Shown: positions 9,358-25,547, counted from the first letter of the stretch. The stretch: DNA of 32,000 nt from Dehalococcoidia bacterium (GCA_965116375.1 OZ220681.1:676224-708223), one strand, 5' to 3'. Notes: generated by a model from the letters alone, not told the origin. Translations and numbers: made by a program.

Positions 9358-9384
9358 TGTAAATGTCAACTAATTCGTTGACAG
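9358..9384. repeat. IS481 terminal inverted repeat (end next to the transposase stop)
   Basis: tgtaaatgtcaactaattcgttgacag. The reverse complement of 10379..10405 is tgtagatgttaggtaattcgctgacag. Confidence 0.85.
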
Positions 9385-10341
9385 AAGTTTCAAGGCTTGG
9401 AGTGGACTCTTGCCGTTTAGGCCCTGGTGCGGTCTCTCCGTGTTGTAGTAGAGGAGGTACTCCACCAGCTCATCCTTCAACTCCTCCACCGATTCGAAAG
9501 TCGTCTCTTCCAGCAGGTCCTCGTTCAGCGTCCGCCAGAAGCGTTCGATCTTCCCGTTGGTCTGTGGCCGGTAGGGCCTGGTGTAGCGGTGCTTGATGCC
9601 CAGTTCCAAGAACATCCGCTCCGTTGGATGTTGCTCCTTATTGGTGGGCGCTGCGACTTCCGGACCGTTGTCGGTAAGAATCTCCTCGAAGCGGATCCCA
9701 TACTCGGCGTTCAGCAGGTTGATGCTCTTGAGCGCAGCAAACATCACGCTCAGGCTCTTGAGATCGTCCACCACCTCCGCCCAGGCGAGACGCGTGCAGG
9801 AGTCGAGCACCGACACCAGGAAGTAGCGTCTTTTGGCGCCCACGATCAGGTCCTTGCTCAGGTAGTGGGAGTCGAGGTGGCCCAACTCACCAGCCCTGGT
9901 CTTGATGATCTGACGCTTGGACTGTCGCATGGGCTTGGTCAACCGGTTCAGGCCATGGCGTTTGGTGATGGCGTAGATGGTCGAGGGCGCTGGAGTGTGA
10001 GACTTCAGGACGGGCTTGAGTATGGCATATATCTCGTAGCGGTTGATGCCCCTCCGCCGCAACTCGATCACCTTCTCCTCGATGAAGGGGATGGTGCGGC
10101 GGCTCTTCCACCTGGGTCCCCGTTTACGGGGCAGAAGGGCGTCGTCCGCTCCCGAGTGGCGGTAGCGGTTGTAGTACTTGGCGAAGGTCTGACGGTTGGT
10201 GCCGTGGTAGGCGTAAAAGTCCTGCAGGAACCGGAACTGGTGATGGCGCTTGGCCTTGACCAGCTCGTACTCCCGGATCAGGAACCGGTACTTCTGGATG
10301 TAGTTCCGCTCAAGCGTGCGGTCGTTACTGTTGCTACGCAT
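9370..10341 (-). CDS. IS481-family transposase (HTH + rve/DDE integrase core)
   Basis: DDE triad context (GHLDSHYL, ILTDNGPE, NGKIERFWRTLNEDLL) and YTRPYRPQTNGK. Start chosen at the ATG preceded by GGGAGG (5-nt spacer); the track ORF extends to a TTG at 10377. Confidence 0.9.
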   Translation of the reverse strand: MRSNSNDRTLERNYIQKYRFLIREYELVKAKRHHQFRFLQDFYAYHGTNRQTFAKYYNRYRHSGADDALLPRKRGPRWKSRRTIPFIEEKVIELRRRGINRYEIYAILKPVLKSHTPAPSTIYAITKRHGLNRLTKPMRQSKRQIIKTRAGELGHLDSHYLSKDLIVGAKRRYFLVSVLDSCTRLAWAEVVDDLKSLSVMFAALKSINLLNAEYGIRFEEILTDNGPEVAAPTNKEQHPTERMFLELGIKHRYTRPYRPQTNGKIERFWRTLNEDLLEETTFESVEELKDELVEYLLYYNTERPHQGLNGKSPLQALKLLSTN

Positions 10342-10378
10342 CTTCGCCTCCCGATCAGCATGATCCATAAATGCCAAT

Positions 10379-19765: not shown

Positions 19766-20749
19766 TTACGTCAGCCCCGTCCGCCGGGCGGCCCACTCAC
19801 GCGCGACCACGCCCTGCGCATCCTGGAACGCGCGCACCGTCGGCAGTCCCGGTGGCGGCGGCTGAACGGCATGGTGGGTGAAGAACCCGGCTATCGCCAC
19901 CACCGCCGCGGTGATGGCGTCGCTGTCTGCGGTGTGGCATGCGAAGTGCCTGGAGATCACCTCCTCGGGATGCGGCCCACCCTGCATCGTCACGCTGGGC
20001 GCAAACGCCACTACGTCGAGCCACGCTGGACCGACAAGAGCGTGTGGCCAGTCGACGAACCACGTACGTTCCGGCGTGACCAGGATGTTGTCCGCCCTGA
20101 TGTCGAGGTTCAGCAGCGTGTCGCCTTCCAGTACGCCACCGGCTGCGTCATCGATGGCAACCAACCTCTCCAGGTTTCGGCGCGACCACTCGTCCAGATC
20201 ACCAAGCCGGGACGGCCGTTCGTCCAGCAGTGGCCGCCAGCCGCGGATGGTCGTCGCGAACATGTCGCTTGCCGTCCCGGCCGATGTGAGTGGCGAGGGC
20301 GTAAGCAACCTGCCCAGGTCCTCCATTGCCGCGACCACTCGATCGAGTTCGTCAGTCCGCCACGGCTGCGTCGGGTGACGGCCATCCACGTCTTCGAAAA
20401 CGAGCGCAATCCAACCGCCTTCGCCTTCGTCGTAGGACCACATTAGCCGCGGGACCGGAGCGCCACGGGGCATGGCAGCCATAACCTTGGCTTCGCGCCG
20501 GTGCATCCCGGGCGTGTCCCGGTTGGGTTCAGGCCCTACCGCCTTGACGAAGAAACGCCGGCCGTCGTCCACCGTCAGCCGCGCCGCCACCCCGGGCGAA
20601 AAGCCGGTGGGCTGCGTAACCGCGTCCACGACACCGCCTCCAAGCCATCGTTCGATCTCGGCGCGCACGCGCCTTGGCATGTCCGCCCACTCAACCCTGA
20701 CGCCGCGGTCCGGCGGAGGGCCTGTCCCCTGAGGCCTTTTGTCGCTCAT
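19766..20749 (-). CDS. Phosphotransferase-family (APH/choline-kinase-like) kinase
   Basis: FFVKAV (Lys region), catalytic-loop-like LNLDIRADNILV, and FVDWPHA (DW metal-binding motif). Start taken at the ATG that overlaps the upstream gene stop (ATGA); the track ORF extends to 20887. Confidence 0.7.
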   Translation of the reverse strand: MSDKRPQGTGPPPDRGVRVEWADMPRRVRAEIERWLGGGVVDAVTQPTGFSPGVAARLTVDDGRRFFVKAVGPEPNRDTPGMHRREAKVMAAMPRGAPVPRLMWSYDEGEGGWIALVFEDVDGRHPTQPWRTDELDRVVAAMEDLGRLLTPSPLTSAGTASDMFATTIRGWRPLLDERPSRLGDLDEWSRRNLERLVAIDDAAGGVLEGDTLLNLDIRADNILVTPERTWFVDWPHALVGPAWLDVVAFAPSVTMQGGPHPEEVISRHFACHTADSDAITAAVVAIAGFFTHHAVQPPPPGLPTVRAFQDAQGVVAREWAARRTGLT

Positions 20750-21489
20750 TCTCCCTGACCCACCCTTTCGTACACCGGCACATGCGAGCGACTCTCCGCC
20801 ATAAACGGCGAGCCTCGCCAGTCGGCCCACCTGTCGCGGAGACTCAGTCCGGCCAGCCGCGCCATCAGGTCCAACTCCGACGGCCACGCGTAACGCAGCC
20901 TCCCGGGATAAATCCGGATACCCTCTTCCGTCACGTGCAGGTGGCGGAAGTCCACCGCCTGGTTGACGGGGTCGTGGACCGACACGTCCAGGCGGACGGA
21001 GGCCACGTCGGGCAGGCTCGCGCTCAGGCGCCGGCCCCTGTCGAACATGGAAACGTCCGGCACAAAGGCGTGAATCAAGAAGACGCCGGACTCACCAAGC
21101 CGCGAAGCGACGTTTTCGAAGCACCTGGCCTGCTCCTCCTGGGAAGTCAACATGAAAAATGTGTTCGAAACGACGAACACAAGCGAGAAGTCGCCTTTCA
21201 CGTCTACGTCCGCGAAGTCGCCGATGGTCACCGTTATCCTCTCAGCGCCTTGTTTGGCCCGAAGGCGATCAACCATCGCGCTCGAAGAGTCGATCCCATG
21301 CACCTCGACATCCCGTTCGGCCAGCGGAAGCGCGAACGTCCCTGTCCCAATCCCCAATTCGAGCGCCCGGCCACCGGCCGCAGACTGCTCAAGCAAGTCC
21401 ACACACTCGGATACGTCTATCGGTCGATAGATTTCGTCGTAAACGTCGGCGATCCGGTCCCCGTAAGTCGAAGCTGTGTACCCCTTCAT
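20746..21489 (-). CDS. Class I SAM-dependent methyltransferase
   Basis: Motif I ALELGIGTGTFALPLA and post-I acidic HGIDSS. Start at the ATG preceded by AAGGAA (8 nt). Confidence 0.8.
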   Translation of the reverse strand: MKGYTASTYGDRIADVYDEIYRPIDVSECVDLLEQSAAGGRALELGIGTGTFALPLAERDVEVHGIDSSSAMVDRLRAKQGAERITVTIGDFADVDVKGDFSLVFVVSNTFFMLTSQEEQARCFENVASRLGESGVFLIHAFVPDVSMFDRGRRLSASLPDVASVRLDVSVHDPVNQAVDFRHLHVTEEGIRIYPGRLRYAWPSELDLMARLAGLSLRDRWADWRGSPFMAESRSHVPVYERVGQGE

Positions 21490-21520
21490 GAACCGATTCC
21501 TTTCCCAATTCCGCTGCAAA

Positions 21521-21551
21521 TCAAAAAGGCCTCCCGTTTTGGGGAGGCCTT
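21521..21551 (-). terminator. Intrinsic terminator (minus strand) between the SMT-like gene and the methyltransferase gene
   Basis: 10-bp stem aaggcctccc/gggaggcctt with a 6-nt loop. On the minus strand it is followed by TTTTTGATTT. Confidence 0.65.
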
Positions 21552-21751
21552 CGCTCGGACTATGACTGTTCTGTAGCTAGATTCTCCCCAACGTGAAGCG
21601 CAAGGGCGCCGGCGCCGTTGTGGCGTTCATAGTGGAAATCAGGAGGTGTCCAGCCATCGGTCTAGTTCCAGGTTGCCGCTCACGCATTACGCCGGATGTG
21701 TCCGCCCAAGCCTGCGTCCTTCGATTGTATGAAATCCAGGCTCGTTCTGCG

Positions 21752-22810
21752 CTACCCCGGTTTGCGGGCGTGGATGAAGTACATCGGCGTGAAGATGCCG
21801 AGCCGGCCCGCCTCGACCATGGCGTCCGCACAACGGTTCAGCGCCTCCGATACGCGGACCGATCCCTTCGGCGCGATGCGAAGCACTTCAAGCGTCCTCA
21901 GCAGATTCTGCGTGGACCAGCGTCCGACCCGCGAACTGCGAAATGCGGCCACTGATATACCCGAACCGACCAGGGGTTCGTACCACGGAATCGACGGCCC
22001 GGTCTGTTCAGTAAGGTCCCTGGTTTCCAACACCTCGAACCCCACTGTTCGAAGCGCGTCATCAACCGTTTGCCTGTCGTCGATGTCGAGCAGGCCGCCT
22101 CCCAGTTCTATGTCTGCTTTGATCTCGAGATGCTTGGGGTCCTGGGCATCGAACCGTTCAGTCAAGCAGTATTCATAGTTGGCGAAGCACGTGCCCGGCT
22201 TCAGCAAACGAAAGGCCTCGGCGTAGACGCTGAGTTTGTCCGGCGCGCAACAAGTGGCTTCGATACCGTACACGGCGTCGAACGATTCGTCGGGAGCATC
22301 CACGTTCAAGAAGTCGCAGTGCAGGAAATCGACCAGGTGTGTCACTTCCGCTTCTTCAGCCAGCCTGCGGGCACGTTCGAGCTGATACGCATTGCTGTTT
22401 ACGCCTACGATCCTGGCGCCGGAAAAACGGGCGATCTCCAATAGTGGCCCGCCGATGCCGCAACCCAGATCGGCAACGCGCATCCCGGGCCTGAGCCCGA
22501 GCATGAGGGCCAAATAGTGCTCGTGGCGCGTAAGCGATGCCTTGAAGCTCTCACCGGGAACGCGCGGGGCAAAGTGAAAGGATTTGCCCCATCCATACTC
22601 ATAGAAGTCAGAAACCAGGTCATAGTAGAGGTCAGTGAAGTCCTTGACATCACGCTCTTTGGCTTCCCATTCGCCGCGCTTGCCCTTCCCATAACGGTCC
22701 TCGTATTCGCGGACGGCAGAAGCGCTCAATCTTCCCTTCAGGAGTTTGGAGAGCTTGAATGCCATCAAAACGTGCTCGGACTGACTATAGACCGGGATAG
22801 CCCCGGCCAT
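21752..22810 (-). CDS. Sterol C-24 methyltransferase-like SAM methyltransferase (Erg6/SMT1 homologue)
   Basis: End-to-end resemblance to Erg6/SMT1: DFYEYGWGKSFHF, GESFKASLTRHEHYLA, DLGCGIGGPLLEIARFSG, YGIEATCCAP, LKPG, IELGGG, GFEVL, IPWYEPL, APKGS, and FTPMYFIHARKP at the C-terminus. Start uncertain (ATG 22810 or 22765). The track ORF to 23080 overlaps the next gene. Confidence 0.85.
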   Translation of the reverse strand: MAGAIPVYSQSEHVLMAFKLSKLLKGRLSASAVREYEDRYGKGKRGEWEAKERDVKDFTDLYYDLVSDFYEYGWGKSFHFAPRVPGESFKASLTRHEHYLALMLGLRPGMRVADLGCGIGGPLLEIARFSGARIVGVNSNAYQLERARRLAEEAEVTHLVDFLHCDFLNVDAPDESFDAVYGIEATCCAPDKLSVYAEAFRLLKPGTCFANYEYCLTERFDAQDPKHLEIKADIELGGGLLDIDDRQTVDDALRTVGFEVLETRDLTEQTGPSIPWYEPLVGSGISVAAFRSSRVGRWSTQNLLRTLEVLRIAPKGSVRVSEALNRCADAMVEAGRLGIFTPMYFIHARKPG

Positions 22811-22922: not shown

Positions 22923-23366
22923 CTACAGAGTGTCGAATCCCTCCCACCCGGGCAGCGCCGCCGATTGCAGGACCCACTCCGCCATCTGCTCCTCATCGAG
23001 TTCGCCCTCGTATATGTCGACCCATCGAGCGTCGGGGTCCTTGCCCGAGCCGGGCGGCTCAGGCCGCAGCGATGCCCCATTCAAAAAGGTCACCTTCACG
23101 TAACGGGTGAAGACGTGGTAGCTCGCAAACCACCCCATGCCCTCGATTCCATACCACGGCGAATTCCACCGGACGGCTTTTCGCACGTCGGGCACAGTGC
23201 GCACGATCAGGTCATCCAGGCGCCTCCCAACGTCGCTCTTCCACCCTGGCATCGCCGCAATGTAAGCCTGCACGGGCGCATCCCCGTCTGCCTTCGCGAT
23301 CTGCGGGTTGCCGCCCGAAAGCAGCACCGCCTTCTTGGCTTTGGACTTCGACGATTTGGCGGGCAT
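22923..23366 (-). CDS. DUF1801 (YdhG-like) domain protein
   Basis: 147 aa. VQAYIAAMPGWKSDVGRRLDDLI...AVRWNSPWY pattern of DUF1801. SD GGAGAG 7 nt upstream. Confidence 0.75.
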   Translation of the reverse strand: MPAKSSKSKAKKAVLLSGGNPQIAKADGDAPVQAYIAAMPGWKSDVGRRLDDLIVRTVPDVRKAVRWNSPWYGIEGMGWFASYHVFTRYVKVTFLNGASLRPEPPGSGKDPDARWVDIYEGELDEEQMAEWVLQSAALPGWEGFDTL

Positions 23367-23489
23367 CGCATACTCTCCAATCCGCGGTTGGCGCTGACCG
23401 GTTGGCCGAGGGTTGCTGTGTTTCTTCGGAAAACGCTATTGCGTGAACCGGAACATTCTTCCTCTGATAATAGGCGGTTCTACGGTAAT

Positions 23490-23519
23490 GTCATTTCGAG
23501 CGAAGCCGGGAAATCTGAG
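23490..23519 (+). repeat. Hairpin repeat family 1 copy (GTCATYYYGAGCGMAGCCGRRRRATCTGAG)
   Basis: gtcATTTCgagcgaagccggGAAATctgag. The 5-nt arms are perfectly complementary. Confidence 0.7.
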
Positions 23520-23633
23520 TCAGCCGCTAACAGAAACGGCCCGATCCACAACCGCCCCGGTGCTCCCCCATCGTCCTACCCGCCGAAGAACTTCATCCCA
23601 TGCCCCCTTACTGGCATCTCTAGCCCCCTTACT

Positions 23634-23663
23634 GTCATCCCGAGCGAAGCCGAGCGATCCGAA
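23634..23663 (+). repeat. Hairpin repeat family 1 copy (degenerate 3' arm)
   Basis: gtcatcccgagcgaagccgagcgatccgaa. Preceded by a local duplication ccccttactgGcatc / ccccttactgTcatc. Confidence 0.6.
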
Positions 23664-23837
23664 CCGCCCTTTTACCGTGCACTTCGTACTCGACAAACCC
23701 TTTCTGCACCACTCCGCTACCAACACCATCTTTTGTACCCGCCGTACCAGACCACACCCGTCATTCCAGTCCCCGTTCACCTACCCTCACCCCAACGGCA
23801 TTCACAAACCCCGAACTCCCACCAAACCCCCCGTAGC

Positions 23838-23856
23838 GGCGGGTCTCAGACCCGCC
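23838..23856. repeat. Palindromic hairpin (family 3-like)
   Basis: ggcgggtct-c-agacccgcc, perfect 9+9 palindrome. Confidence 0.6.
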
Positions 23857-23946
23857 TGGGCCAGGGCGCGGCGTTACCCGTGCACCTCCTACGTCTCCAC
23901 GAGCAGATGGGGAAGGTGTGGGTAAGCCGCGATGGTTCCGCGCCCG

Positions 23947-23980
23947 ACCGTGGGTACCGGATCAAGTCCGGCAAGTCGAA
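23947..23980 (+). repeat. Hairpin repeat family 2 copy
   Basis: accgtgggtaccggatcaagtccggcaagtcgaa, 32/34 identical to 24125..24158. Confidence 0.75.
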
Positions 23981-24031
23981 TTGGGCTGGGTATCAGAGTC
24001 GTGCGTGGGGTAGCCGCGCCCGTCCTTTGCC

Positions 24032-24063
24032 CCGTGGCTACCGGGTGTCCCCGGTACGACGAA
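24032..24063 (+). repeat. Hairpin repeat family 2 copy (diverged)
   Basis: ccgtggctaccgggtgtccccggtacgacgaa. Same frame of conserved flanks, stem ACCGGG/CCCGGT. Confidence 0.55.
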
Positions 24064-24124
24064 AAAGGGGGTGGGTCTGTCGGCTGGGAGTTGTAGATGT
24101 CGTGCGTACCCACCTCCACGCCCC

Positions 24125-24158
24125 ACCGTGGGTACCGGATCGAGTCCGGCAAGTCGAG
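24125..24158 (+). repeat. Hairpin repeat family 2 copy
   Basis: accgtgggtaccggatcgagtccggcaagtcgag. Confidence 0.75.
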
Positions 24159-24173
24159 TAAGGGTGGACGCGG

Positions 24174-25511
24174 TCAGAAGGGGACGGGTGAGATTGACAC
24201 CAGGTCTTTGAGGGGGACTCGGATTTCGTCGGGGTCCCTGTAACGGCGCGAGTCGTCGTCGGGCGGATCGTCTTCGCTTGGTGGGCCGAGGTGGATTATC
24301 GGGCGTTTATTCCTGGGTGGCGGTTCAGGCGCGGGTGGTCCTTCGGGGTCAAGGGAGGGTTTGAAATCCTCCCCTACAGTTTCAGAGCAGTCCCGGCAAT
24401 GTCCGTATCCACGGGAGGGTTTGAAACCCTCGCCTACGCGGGTGTTTTGGGGCTGGTCAGGAGCGGCGGAAGAGGATGGTTGCGCAGATGCAGGAGATCC
24501 TTCGGCTTCGCTCAGGATGACAACGCCGGGAGGGTCCGAGTCTTCCGGGGGTTTGTCGTCGTTATGGGCGAGGAGGTGGCGGTTGCGTTCGAGGTACTGG
24601 AGGGTTTGGGGGTCGAGTGACGTTGTGTCCGTGAGTGCGTTGAGGCTGCCATCTTCGTTTATGAGGTGTTTGAACTTTCGCTTGTGGTATTCCAACACGG
24701 CCCTATTGGCTGCCCTGACCGCATTGTTGTCCTGGAAGGCGATCTTCAAGCATTTGTACCCGTAGGAACCTTTGCCGAAGGGGTCGTCTCCGGGGTTTTT
24801 GATCGGGGTGGTGTTGTAGTCGCCTACTTGATCGGTGGCGTAACTTTCGTCCCAGTGTTTGCGGTTTGCGTCGAGAGCGACTTCCCAGGCTTCTTCGCCG
24901 CCGTAGATGTGGAGCTTGGCCCGGAGTCCCGCCCGATCTCTTTCGTACTCCTCAATTGTGTAGTTGTCGAAGTCGAACGGGGCGTCGTCGTCGTTGTACT
25001 GTTTGGCGTTGCGGCGCGCCCGGTTGGCAGGCAGTTCGTGAGACATGGGTTCGTCGTTCCCGTCCTCATCGGCGACGACGGTGTGACCGGGGAGGTTGTC
25101 GAATCCTCGCGTGATCAGCCTGTCGGATGCTGCGAGGCGGTGGCGCGGTTTGAAGTCTTCGAGTTTGCCTTGCATGGCATCCATGAGGAACCGGACGATG
25201 TCCCTGCCGCCGTCGGTTTCCTCCCTGATGATGTCTGCGAGTTCGTCTTTTGGCTCGGGCTTGCCGGGGGCGCGTTCGGGCTTGGCGCCGTTGGAAGGGG
25301 TTGAGACGGCCTGCTTGACGGCGTTGGGGATTTTGACTCCGAGTCTTTGGAGTTGGCGCGTAGCTTCCATCCGGTGCCAGATGTTGGCGCCTTCGATATT
25401 GCCCACAACGACGTCGACCAGGAATTCGACGATGAGCTGGCCGCCGTTGGTGGCCTCCTGGACGACTTCGGCGATGGGTCTGTATTGGGTTTTTGTCGGG
25501 GAATCGCACAT
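24174..25511 (-). CDS. Orphan protein with tandem 46-aa N-terminal modules and a repeat-encoded C-terminal tail
   Basis: 445-aa ORF with no antisense competitor of better quality. Acidic, protein-like composition for the first ~320 aa. Internal duplication (aa 13-58 vs 91-136, 17/46 identical, ungapped). A strong promoter lies immediately upstream. No family recognised. The last ~125 aa are encoded by hairpin-repeat DNA. Confidence 0.55.
   Translation of the reverse strand: MCDSPTKTQYRPIAEVVQEATNGGQLIVEFLVDVVVGNIEGANIWHRMEATRQLQRLGVKIPNAVKQAVSTPSNGAKPERAPGKPEPKDELADIIREETDGGRDIVRFLMDAMQGKLEDFKPRHRLAASDRLITRGFDNLPGHTVVADEDGNDEPMSHELPANRARRNAKQYNDDDAPFDFDNYTIEEYERDRAGLRAKLHIYGGEEAWEVALDANRKHWDESYATDQVGDYNTTPIKNPGDDPFGKGSYGYKCLKIAFQDNNAVRAANRAVLEYHKRKFKHLINEDGSLNALTDTTSLDPQTLQYLERNRHLLAHNDDKPPEDSDPPGVVILSEAEGSPASAQPSSSAAPDQPQNTRVGEGFKPSRGYGHCRDCSETVGEDFKPSLDPEGPPAPEPPPRNKRPIIHLGPPSEDDPPDDDSRRYRDPDEIRVPLKDLVSISPVPF
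24353..24377 (+). repeat. Hairpin repeat family 3 copy
   Basis: gggagggtttgaaatcctcccctac, 23/25 identical to 24413..24437. Lies inside the 3' part of ORF 24174..25511. Confidence 0.7.
24413..24437 (+). repeat. Hairpin repeat family 3 copy
   Basis: gggagggtttgaaaccctcgcctac. Core gagggttt-g-aaaccctc palindrome. Confidence 0.7.
24491..24521 (-). repeat. Hairpin repeat family 1 copy (inverted orientation)
   Basis: The reverse complement reads gtcATCCTgagcgaagccgaAGGATctcctg. Lies inside ORF 24174..25511, where it encodes VILSEAEGSP. Confidence 0.7.
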
Positions 25512-25518
25512 ATGTTCT

Positions 25519-25547
25519 AATTTAGGGGGAAAGGGGGGTGGTGTCAA
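25519..25547 (-). promoter_or_regulatory. Sigma-70-type promoter giving a leaderless or near-leaderless mRNA for the orphan ORF
   Basis: On the minus strand: TTGACA, 17 nt, TAAATT, 7 nt, ATG. No Shine-Dalgarno sequence. Confidence 0.5.

Follow-up and report, generated by a model that had tools for sequence, protein, structure and literature searches.

A predicted sterol C-24 methyltransferase of the sponge-symbiont clade in a Dehalococcoidia chromosome

A gene on the chromosome of an uncultured Dehalococcoidia bacterium (Chloroflexota) very probably encodes, judging from conserved residues and phylogenetic position, a functional delta-24-sterol C-methyltransferase (SMT) of a clade that is typical of sponge symbionts. 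We analyzed this gene within a contiguous 32-kb stretch of DNA (hereafter, the window). The first-pass annotation of the window described the product as a full-length homolog of the yeast enzyme Erg6, and this identification is borne out by the presence of the Sterol_MT_C domain, 42% identity to Erg6 and the position of the protein in the SMT tree.

Side-chain-alkylated steranes, such as ergostane, stigmastane and 24-isopropylcholestane, are read as biomarkers of eukaryotes or sponges, and each bacterial lineage with a working SMT weakens this reading. The window adds one chromosomal, selectively maintained SMT in an abundant class of sponge symbionts. The principle that bacteria possess SMTs was already established in 2022-2023, and the gene described here changes little because enzymes about 70% identical to its product have already been assayed. 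The clade is abundant in sponge symbionts and has already been sampled biochemically, and the idea of an orphan SMT is in print for a metagenome-assembled genome (MAG) of Chlamydiae. Closed Dehalococcoidia chromosomes with an orphan SMT do exist, and these provide a test case for sterol making versus the tailoring of host sterols; closed relatives are available as OZ244820.1, OZ244813.1 and OZ240225.1, as is the contig CBDBGE010000003.1.

The gene and its start codon

The SMT gene is an uninterrupted minus-strand open reading frame (ORF), with the stop codon at 21752-21754.

21752..22765, minus strand: coding sequence of the sterol C-24 methyltransferase (SMT/Erg6 family), 337 amino acids plus stop (ORF, Pfam, Erg6 alignment)

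An in-frame ATG at 22810 is an alternative start that would add 15 residues (the 352-aa form). Nearly all homologs are 341 aa long and sequence similarity starts at the equivalent of MAFKLSK, that is, at the ATG at 22765, which is therefore the probable start; the first-pass annotation, which began the gene at 22810, probably placed it too far upstream, by 15 codons. The longest ORF extends to 23080 and runs into the upstream DUF1801 gene (22923-23366); a start there is not credible. The GC content of the gene (0.59-0.60) is the same as that of the window, and the dN/dS values obtained with four orthologs (0.10-0.19, with dS up to 0.95) indicate a working gene. An exact look-up of the 352-aa product returned no record; the nearest cluster, P0001, is 91% identical and belongs to the locus L081.

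Domain architecture and conserved residues

A Pfam search of the product identified Sterol_MT_C (PF08498; 87.6 bits, E = 5.8e-25, cut-off 21.7), a match far beyond chance, beside matches to the generic families Methyltransf_11, Methyltransf_25 and Methyltransf_31, which are indicative of a class I methyltransferase. The C-terminal end FTPMYFIHARKP, which the first-pass annotation had assigned to the Sterol_MT_C type, forms the end of this domain. The other motifs listed in that annotation, namely DFYEYGWGKSFHF, GESFKASLTRHEHYLA, DLGCGIGGPLLEIARFSG, YGIEATCCAP, LKPG, IELGGG, GFEVL, IPWYEPL and APKGS, are all found in the translation. The principal features of the protein map as follows.

21758..21946, minus strand: Sterol_MT_C domain, residues 274-336 (289-351 of the 352-aa form), ending in FTPMYFIHARKP (PF08498, profile positions 3-65 of 66)
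22571..22603, minus strand: Region I sterol-binding motif YEYGWGKSFHF, residues 55-65, corresponding to Erg6 81-91 (Erg6 alignment)
22445..22471, minus strand: Region II SAM-binding motif DLGCGIGGP, residues 99-107, corresponding to Erg6 125-133 (Erg6 alignment)
22241..22270, minus strand: Region III, YGIEATCCAP, residues 166-175, with the equivalent of the essential Erg6 E195 (Erg6 alignment)
22097..22099, minus strand: Gly223, corresponding to Erg6 position 249 (Erg6 alignment)

A BLASTP comparison with yeast Erg6 aligns residues 5-336 of the window SMT with residues 28-368 (42% identity, 266 bits, E = 1e-91). The Erg6 sequence used here agrees with all 28 published residue numbers against which it was compared; Erg6 and the plant SMT1/SMT2 carry the EC numbers 2.1.1.41 / 2.1.1.143. 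The window protein shares with Saccharomyces cerevisiae Erg6 the two-domain architecture and Regions I-IV. In Erg6 numbering, Region I retains G84, W85, G86, F89, H90 and F91, with Tyr at both positions 81 and 83; Region II retains D125, G127, G129, G132 and P133 and fits the pattern DxGxGxxGP; E195 (in IEATCCAP) and G217 of Region IV (in LKPG) are both present; and G333, L341, G352, F357 and P359 are retained in the C-terminal domain. Among the 25 residues that are conserved in every SMT active in vitro (Brown & Welander, bioRxiv 10.64898/2025.12.19.695621), 24 are kept in the window SMT, the exception being T78, which is replaced by Ser, a conservative change that is common to the closest relatives, L001 and L004. 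Compared with Erg6, the window SMT lacks about 25 N-terminal residues and has a 7-residue deletion ahead of Sterol_MT_C; position 249 is occupied by Gly where Erg6 has Asp, and IEATC(H/C)AP contains Cys where Erg6 has His. Unlike Erg6, it is bacterial and not embedded in an ergosterol pathway. Brown et al. 2023 classified as SMTs the full-length proteins with E<=1e-50 and >=30% identity to Erg6, and both values for the window protein (1e-91 and 42%) fall on the SMT side. Taken together, the domain match and the alignment identify the protein as a member of the SMT family with conserved catalytic residues.

An NCBIfam profile search of the window SMT yielded nothing that reaches any curated cut-off, which indicates that NCBIfam has no curated bacterial SMT model. 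Sequence and fold searches of the PDB detected no close structure of the SMT family, the strong matches being limited to generic and terpenoid methyltransferases; one chain of 6f5z, named 24-sterol C-methyltransferase, is a weak match (E = 1.9e-5). The structure model of the window SMT (mean pLDDT 75) has a class I fold, and its nearest solved folds are TleD, geranyl-diphosphate 2-C-methyltransferase (GPPMT) and RebM/MitM (Foldseek E of about 1e-19, TM 0.55-0.65). TleD and GPPMT, like SMTs, methylate an olefin via a carbocation; these four proteins differ from the window SMT in that they are only 18-25% identical to it, lack the Sterol_MT_C domain and act on non-sterol substrates.

Distribution and phylogeny

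The first-pass annotation considered bacterial SMT homologs to be rare, a view that the database counts refute. The protein database contains 2332 clusters with similarity to the window SMT at E<1e-20, and the best 120 of these are 70-91% identical to it, several being encoded on contigs of 2-3.7 Mb. A scan of one genome per species produced 131 matches, the best 80 of which are 58-84% identical, all from MAGs, mostly of Dehalococcoidia/Chloroflexota; the other taxa among these 80 are Acidimicrobiia (including Ca. Poriferisocius), Caldilineaceae, Binatia, Alphaproteobacteria, Rhodospirillales and Thermodesulfobacteriota. Thus, at least 80 species-level MAGs carry members of the window SMT clade; many of these come from sponge metagenomes, and many isolate names among the SMT-bearing MAGs are those of sponge-microbiome studies. 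The gene is located on about 40 closed or near-closed bacterial chromosomes of 1.9-3.9 Mb, and matches in JGI/GenBank metagenomes were found for Aplysina aerophoba, Petrosia ficiformis and Sarcotragus foetidus. A count made in IMG in 2022 gave 7966 metagenomic SMT homologs (Brown et al., PMC10070321).

In a neighbor-joining tree of 101 sequences with Erg6 as the sole eukaryotic representative, the window SMT is nested in a Chloroflexota-dominated clade together with two assayed enzymes, L086 and L082; the placement within the SMT clade that the first-pass annotation anticipated is thus confirmed, the window protein adjoining enzymes with demonstrated C-24 methylation. The same clade also includes the Acidimicrobiia copies, an indication that the gene has been transferred within the sponge microbiome. 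A literature search on the Acidimicrobiia genus 'Ca. Poriferisocius' found nothing relevant.

Chromosomal location and conserved gene order

Gene order over about 20 kb of the window matches that of L001, a contig of 390 kb from a Dehalococcoidia MAG. The identities of the shared genes to their L001 counterparts are as follows.

NrdR: 91%
Class II ribonucleotide reductase (RNR): 92%
DUF1761: 90%
MFS transporter: 90%
APH-like kinase (19766-20887): 75%
Class I methyltransferase (20746-21519): 79%
SMT: 84%
DUF1801: 92%
F420H2 quinone reductase: 82%
ADH: 90%
SDR: 90%

As the first-pass annotation stated, the neighbors are plainly bacterial, including PdxS/T, Tmk, PPK2, NrdR, class II RNR and an F420H2-dependent quinone reductase. 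The arrangement of the SMT and DUF1801 genes is repeated in a third assembly, L081. Two features flank the SMT gene.

22923..23366, minus strand: DUF1801 gene, directly upstream of the SMT gene on the same strand (Pfam PF08818)
21525..21552, minus strand: terminator-like hairpin of 11 pairs followed by a T-run (consensus scan)

DUF1801 adjoins the SMT in L001, L081 and L052 (78-92% identity) and is the sole neighbor kept beside it beyond the two closest relatives; across 80 loci, no neighbor of the SMT is universally conserved. The hairpin, one of the terminator-like sites whose number in the region equals the shuffle expectation, sits in the 232-nt gap between the SMT gene and the next downstream gene and suggests, weakly, that transcription of the SMT is separate from that of the downstream generic methyltransferase and APH-like kinase. 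These two genes were rejected as partners of the SMT, given that the adjacency is common to L001 only, that they match generic families and that the terminator-like hairpin lies between. Considering the synteny with L001 and L081, the GC content equal to that of the window and the low dN/dS, the SMT gene is a stable, selected resident of the Dehalococcoidia chromosome and neither contamination nor a recent arrival.

Assayed relatives and predicted product range

The mechanism of the SMT family was reportedly established by the Nes laboratory. By this mechanism, Region I would hold the side chain of a sterol, the delta-24(25) double bond of which would be methylated by SAM bound at Region II; a hydride shift and the loss of a proton would then resolve the C-25 cation. 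The first methylation would give 24-methylene or delta-25(27) C28 sterols, and the 24(28)-methylene product could be methylated again, yielding 24-ethylidene or 24-ethyl C29 sterols.

Among the 24 bacterial SMTs tested previously, 20 were active; 8 of the 10 enzymes from sponge symbionts methylated desmosterol, three of the sponge-symbiont enzymes also produced 24-ethyl sterols, and two from A. aerophoba, only one of which is encoded in a sterol cluster, produced 24-isopropyl sterols (Brown et al. 2023, PMC10070321). The A. aerophoba cluster contig carries a second SMT copy, which is listed under 'No activity' (bioRxiv 10.64898/2025.12.19.695621). Both assayed members of the Chloroflexota-dominated clade appear by name in Supplementary Table 4 of the 2023 study (PMC10070321). 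Per-enzyme activities are given neither in the 2023 paper and its supplements nor in the 2022 preprint, and for L086 and L082 the activity groups cited below derive from the sequence of rows in a machine-parsed Supplementary Figure 1, which orders the enzymes by the number of methylations (bioRxiv 10.64898/2025.12.19.695621).

The first of these enzymes, the A. aerophoba SMT Ga0209021_1000146 gene 28 (Ga0209021_100014628; L086), is 69.7% identical to the window SMT over the full length and resembles it in belonging to the Chloroflexota-dominated clade, in the 341-aa architecture and in the presence of Gly at position 249. Its gene is likewise solitary, with no oxidosqualene cyclase (OSC) or other sterol-core ORF found within 10 kb. 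This enzyme is grouped under '(3)' methylations, that is, as 24-isopropyl-forming, and has Phe at position 81, whereas the window SMT has Tyr and thus lacks the Region I Phe of the propylating type. The second enzyme, LXNJ01000389 from P. ficiformis (L082), is 67.7% identical, belongs to the same clade, shares Y81/Y83 and G249 with the window SMT and is listed under '(2)' methylations. Its near-identical counterpart, L046 from a Dehalococcoidia MAG, is located beside a module of FAD-oxidase, GPP34-P450, KshA-like and MMPL genes that is absent from the window. The L082 translation has Ser at position 133, whereas P133 is kept in all tested SMTs according to the preprint (bioRxiv 10.64898/2025.12.19.695621), so that this ORF may differ from the tested construct.

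Two sets of positions bear on the number of methylations. A small residue at position 249 (Gly, Ala, Ser, Asn or Thr) is needed for the second methylation, and Gly at this position is needed for C30 products in vitro (bioRxiv 10.64898/2025.12.19.695621). Gly at Erg6 position 249 is a necessary, not a sufficient, condition for propylation, and it is also present in 83 of the 100 non-Erg6 sequences of the tree alignment. All four known propylating SMTs have Phe at position 81 and/or 83 (bioRxiv 10.64898/2025.12.19.695621). We looked for Phe at these two positions in the window SMT and found Tyr at both; hence, it should not be classed as a predicted propylating SMT. We infer the activity from the two assayed relatives and the product range from Gly249 combined with Tyr81/Tyr83: the window SMT is most likely an active enzyme that can be confidently predicted to form C28 products, such as 24-methylenecholesterol and (epi)codisterol, and would likely form C29 products, whereas C30 (isopropyl) products are doubtful.

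Sterol genes in the neighborhoods and the source of the substrate

Among the approximately 30 coding-like ORFs of the window, Pfam searches detected no squalene epoxidase, OSC, CYP51, ERG4/24 reductase or Rieske SdmA, and neither a motif scan nor a tblastx comparison with a real bacterial sterol cluster (L077) revealed a sterol-core gene in the 32 kb. The partners found in de novo clusters (OSC/SMO-OSC, CYP51, ERG24, SdmA/SdmB) are likewise not encoded beside the SMT within 32 kb. The lack of sterol-core genes noted in the first-pass annotation is thus confirmed by all three approaches. As evidence on the substrate, for which that annotation used it, this absence is weak and says little because steroid genes are often scattered in the published genomes of sponge symbionts (Kelly et al., PMC9531527).

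The loci of related SMTs are more informative. L077, with an SMT 61% identical to the window SMT, contains a canonical de novo sterol cluster that consists of three SMTs, an SMO-OSC fusion, ERG24, a Rieske SdmA-like gene and a 3-beta-HSD-like, SdmB-like gene. An ERG4/ERG24 reductase, confirmed by colinear tblastx matches, is located 5-10 kb from the SMT in L050, L065, L052 and L034. In about 15 loci, the SMT is adjacent to a recurrent module of genes for an FAD amine-oxidase-like protein, a GPP34-P450 fusion, a KshA-like Rieske oxygenase and an MMPL transporter with matches to sterol-sensing domains; this module occurs in at least three named taxa (Dehalococcoidia, Binatia and Thermodesulfobacteriota) and in the unclassified L080. 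These sterol-related neighbors of clade members support sterols as the substrate class. Short scattered tblastx matches of the L077 cluster to L057 and L017 were attributed to sequence composition and rejected as noise, and ORFs of about 810 aa with a 'DADDTA' motif in L019, L030, L039 and L042 were rejected as cyclases because they contain 0-1 QW motifs.

With regard to the origin of the sterol, we lean slightly toward a substrate derived from the host or from the surrounding community. A broader proposal, which we put forward tentatively and would not yet call probable, is that Dehalococcoidia with a stand-alone SMT and without OSC alkylate delta-24 sterols obtained from the sponge host or from neighboring symbionts that produce sterols. 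If so, the C28-C30 sterols with alkylated side chains that are attributed to demosponges, and with them the corresponding sterane biomarkers, would have a hidden source in abundant Chloroflexota symbionts, and the cross-phylum SMT clade, sometimes accompanied by the KshA-like/P450/MMPL module, would mark a sterol-tailoring trait of the sponge microbiome. There is a precedent in the Chlamydiae MAG SMT 'drinking water 1 of 2', an orphan in a genome without any other homolog of sterol biosynthesis genes, for which alkylation of host-acquired sterols has already been proposed (Brown et al. 2023, PMC10070321). The Chlamydiae MAG belongs to another phylum and lacks other sterol genes genome-wide, whereas for the Dehalococcoidia the absence is known within the 32-kb window.

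The foremost alternative is that another part of the genome encodes a full de novo pathway (squalene synthase, SMO-OSC, CYP51, ERG24, SdmAB), of which the SMT catalyzes one step. We regard this as possible though not the favored explanation. In its favor, ERG24-CYP51-LSS clusters have been reported in 115 of 537 Ircinia symbiont MAGs, including those of Dehalococcoidia, where steroid genes are, as already mentioned, often scattered (Kelly et al., PMC9531527), an OSC is present in the same cluster or MAG for 13 of the 24 tested SMTs (Brown et al., PMC10070321), and the canonical cluster of L077 includes an SMT of the same clade. Against it, an OSC is located within 10 kb of the SMT in only one of the 80 species-representative loci, and among the best 120 of the 1953 relatives of the L077 OSC, none was traced to an SMT-bearing Dehalococcoidia chromosome, the named carriers being Alpha- and Gammaproteobacteria, Nitrospira and Thiotrichales; the first observation is not decisive, and the second is an indirect comparison that is not decisive either. 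The use of a sterol from the host or community remains our slightly preferred reading.

Alternative activities and origins

A different regiospecificity or substrate on the SMT fold, that is, methylation of sterols at C-26 or C-4, or of a hopanoid or some other olefinic isoprenoid, appears unlikely. SMT-family enzymes specific for C-4 do exist (STRM-1 type, PMC9136925), 26-SMTs have been postulated and are undiscovered, and about one third of the tested bacterial SMTs, which 'may require different sterol substrates', showed no activity on desmosterol and 24-methylenecholesterol. Four tested SMTs with all of the conserved residues were inactive on both substrates (bioRxiv 10.64898/2025.12.19.695621); one of these, L085 (S. 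foetidus LXNI01016685), is 59% identical to the window SMT. The nearest solved structures, TleD and GPPMT, act on non-sterol terpenoids. However, C-24 methylation is listed for the two closest relatives that have been assayed, and Regions I-IV together with H90 and E195 are of the C-24 type. The first-pass annotation also suggested a hopanoid or another isoprenoid as the substrate; this is without positive support, and neither Pfam nor the motif scan detected hopanoid genes (SHC, HpnP/R) in the window.

It is still less probable that the gene is an inactive or decaying paralog kept by chance after horizontal transfer. The T78S replacement affects a position conserved in functional SMTs, and 11 tested bacterial SMTs showed no activity (bioRxiv 10.64898/2025.12.19.695621). 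Against decay, the ORF is intact, the dN/dS values across the four orthologs are low at a dS of up to 0.95, the position and synteny are kept in L001 and L081, and Ser78 is common to related lineages.

Finally, a misassembly that placed eukaryotic DNA, from a sponge or an alga, in a bacterial contig, for which nothing speaks beyond the eukaryotic reputation of the family, can be dismissed as extremely improbable given the same SMT neighborhood in the independent assemblies L001 and L081, the occurrence of the gene on the approximately 40 closed or near-closed bacterial chromosomes, the lack of introns, a GC content equal to that of the flanks and an identity to Erg6 of 42%.

Gene neighborhoods of SMT genes in related genomes

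A recurrent gene module adjoins the SMT gene in approximately 15 of the 80 species that gave the best matches (among 131 in species-representative genomes), spanning at least three named taxa. The loci are:

Dehalococcoidia: L011, L018, L044-L049, L054, L056 (for example, L056:9125-20747), L059, L060 and L063
Binatia: L075
Thermodesulfobacteriota: L079
additional locus: L080

The module encompasses an FAD amine oxidase-like protein, for which the best PDB match is LkcE, a fusion protein of approximately 675 aa that combines a GPP34/GOLPH3-like domain with a cytochrome P450, a Rieske oxygenase containing a KshA_C domain, an MMPL transporter matching the sterol-sensing domain, and a lipoprotein that is either LppX/LprG-like or LolA-like. 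In these approximately 15 loci the module lacks an OSC gene. It looks like a cluster for sterol uptake or tailoring; in a limited comparison with the literature, we found no published description of it.

A distinct gene context was identified in an alphaproteobacterial sponge MAG:

L077:1015-12957, sterol gene cluster

Here, three tandem SMT genes, one of which belongs to a divergent 392-aa class, adjoin genes for an SMO-OSC fusion, ERG24, a Rieske protein (VanA_C-type, SdmA-like) and a 3-beta-HSD-like (SdmB-like) protein. This gene set is the canonical cluster for de novo sterol synthesis in bacteria. One of its SMTs belongs to the clade of the window protein, to which it is 61% identical.

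More than one SMT gene (two or three per locus) was found within 10 kb in 12 loci among the best 80 of the 131 species-representative loci (L018, L044, L045, L059, L066-L070, L077, L079 and L080). A tandem SMT pair is conserved in Acidimicrobiia, and a divergent, separate SMT subclade comprises copies of 323-394 aa in L018, L044, L045, L059, L079 and L080. Additional copies of this kind are candidate enzymes of different regiospecificity, for instance the as yet undiscovered 26-SMT.

Four loci, L050, L065, L052 and L034, encode a sterol reductase of the ERG4/ERG24 family (PF01222, 133 bits) at a distance of 5-10 kb from the SMT, as in the Dehalococcoidia locus L050:

L050:15877-17022, ERG4/ERG24-family sterol reductase

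The copy in L034, which is labelled Acidimicrobiales, is 95.8% identical to that of L050, and the L034 SMT groups inside the Dehalococcoidia SMTs; the explanation is either mis-binning or very recent transfer.

Position 133

According to a 2025 preprint (Brown & Welander, bioRxiv 10.64898/2025.12.19.695621), P133 is kept in all tested SMTs. However, the translated SMT of Petrosia ficiformis LXNJ01000389 (L082:9204-10223), one of the assayed enzymes, contains Ser at Erg6 position 133 (GCGIGGS), a residue also present in 13 of the 100 non-Erg6 sequences in our 101-sequence alignment. Either the assayed construct is not identical to this sequence, or the preprint is imprecise on this point.

Other features of the window

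23400-24560, stretch with many repeats and a non-coding appearance, upstream of the DUF1801 gene
24174-25547, minus strand, ORF of 457 aa with coding-like codon bias
9370-10377, minus strand, IS-type transposase with integrase core domains rve, rve_2 and rve_3

The repeat-rich stretch contains GTCATCCCGAGCGAAGCCGAG..GATC copies, some in each orientation, along with a pair of 53-nt direct repeats spaced by 178 nt and two GGGAGGGTTTGAAACCCTCCCCTAC hairpin units. The ORF lies in the variable region that separates the DUF1801 gene from the F420H2 quinone reductase gene, has no matches in Pfam or NCBIfam and lacks a counterpart in L001, the syntenic Dehalococcoidia locus. Because the repeats run on into its 3' part, its C-terminus may not be real coding sequence. 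The transposase, for which no homologues were found among the SMT-bearing relative loci compared, is flanked by genes for a NUDIX hydrolase and an alpha/beta-hydrolase.
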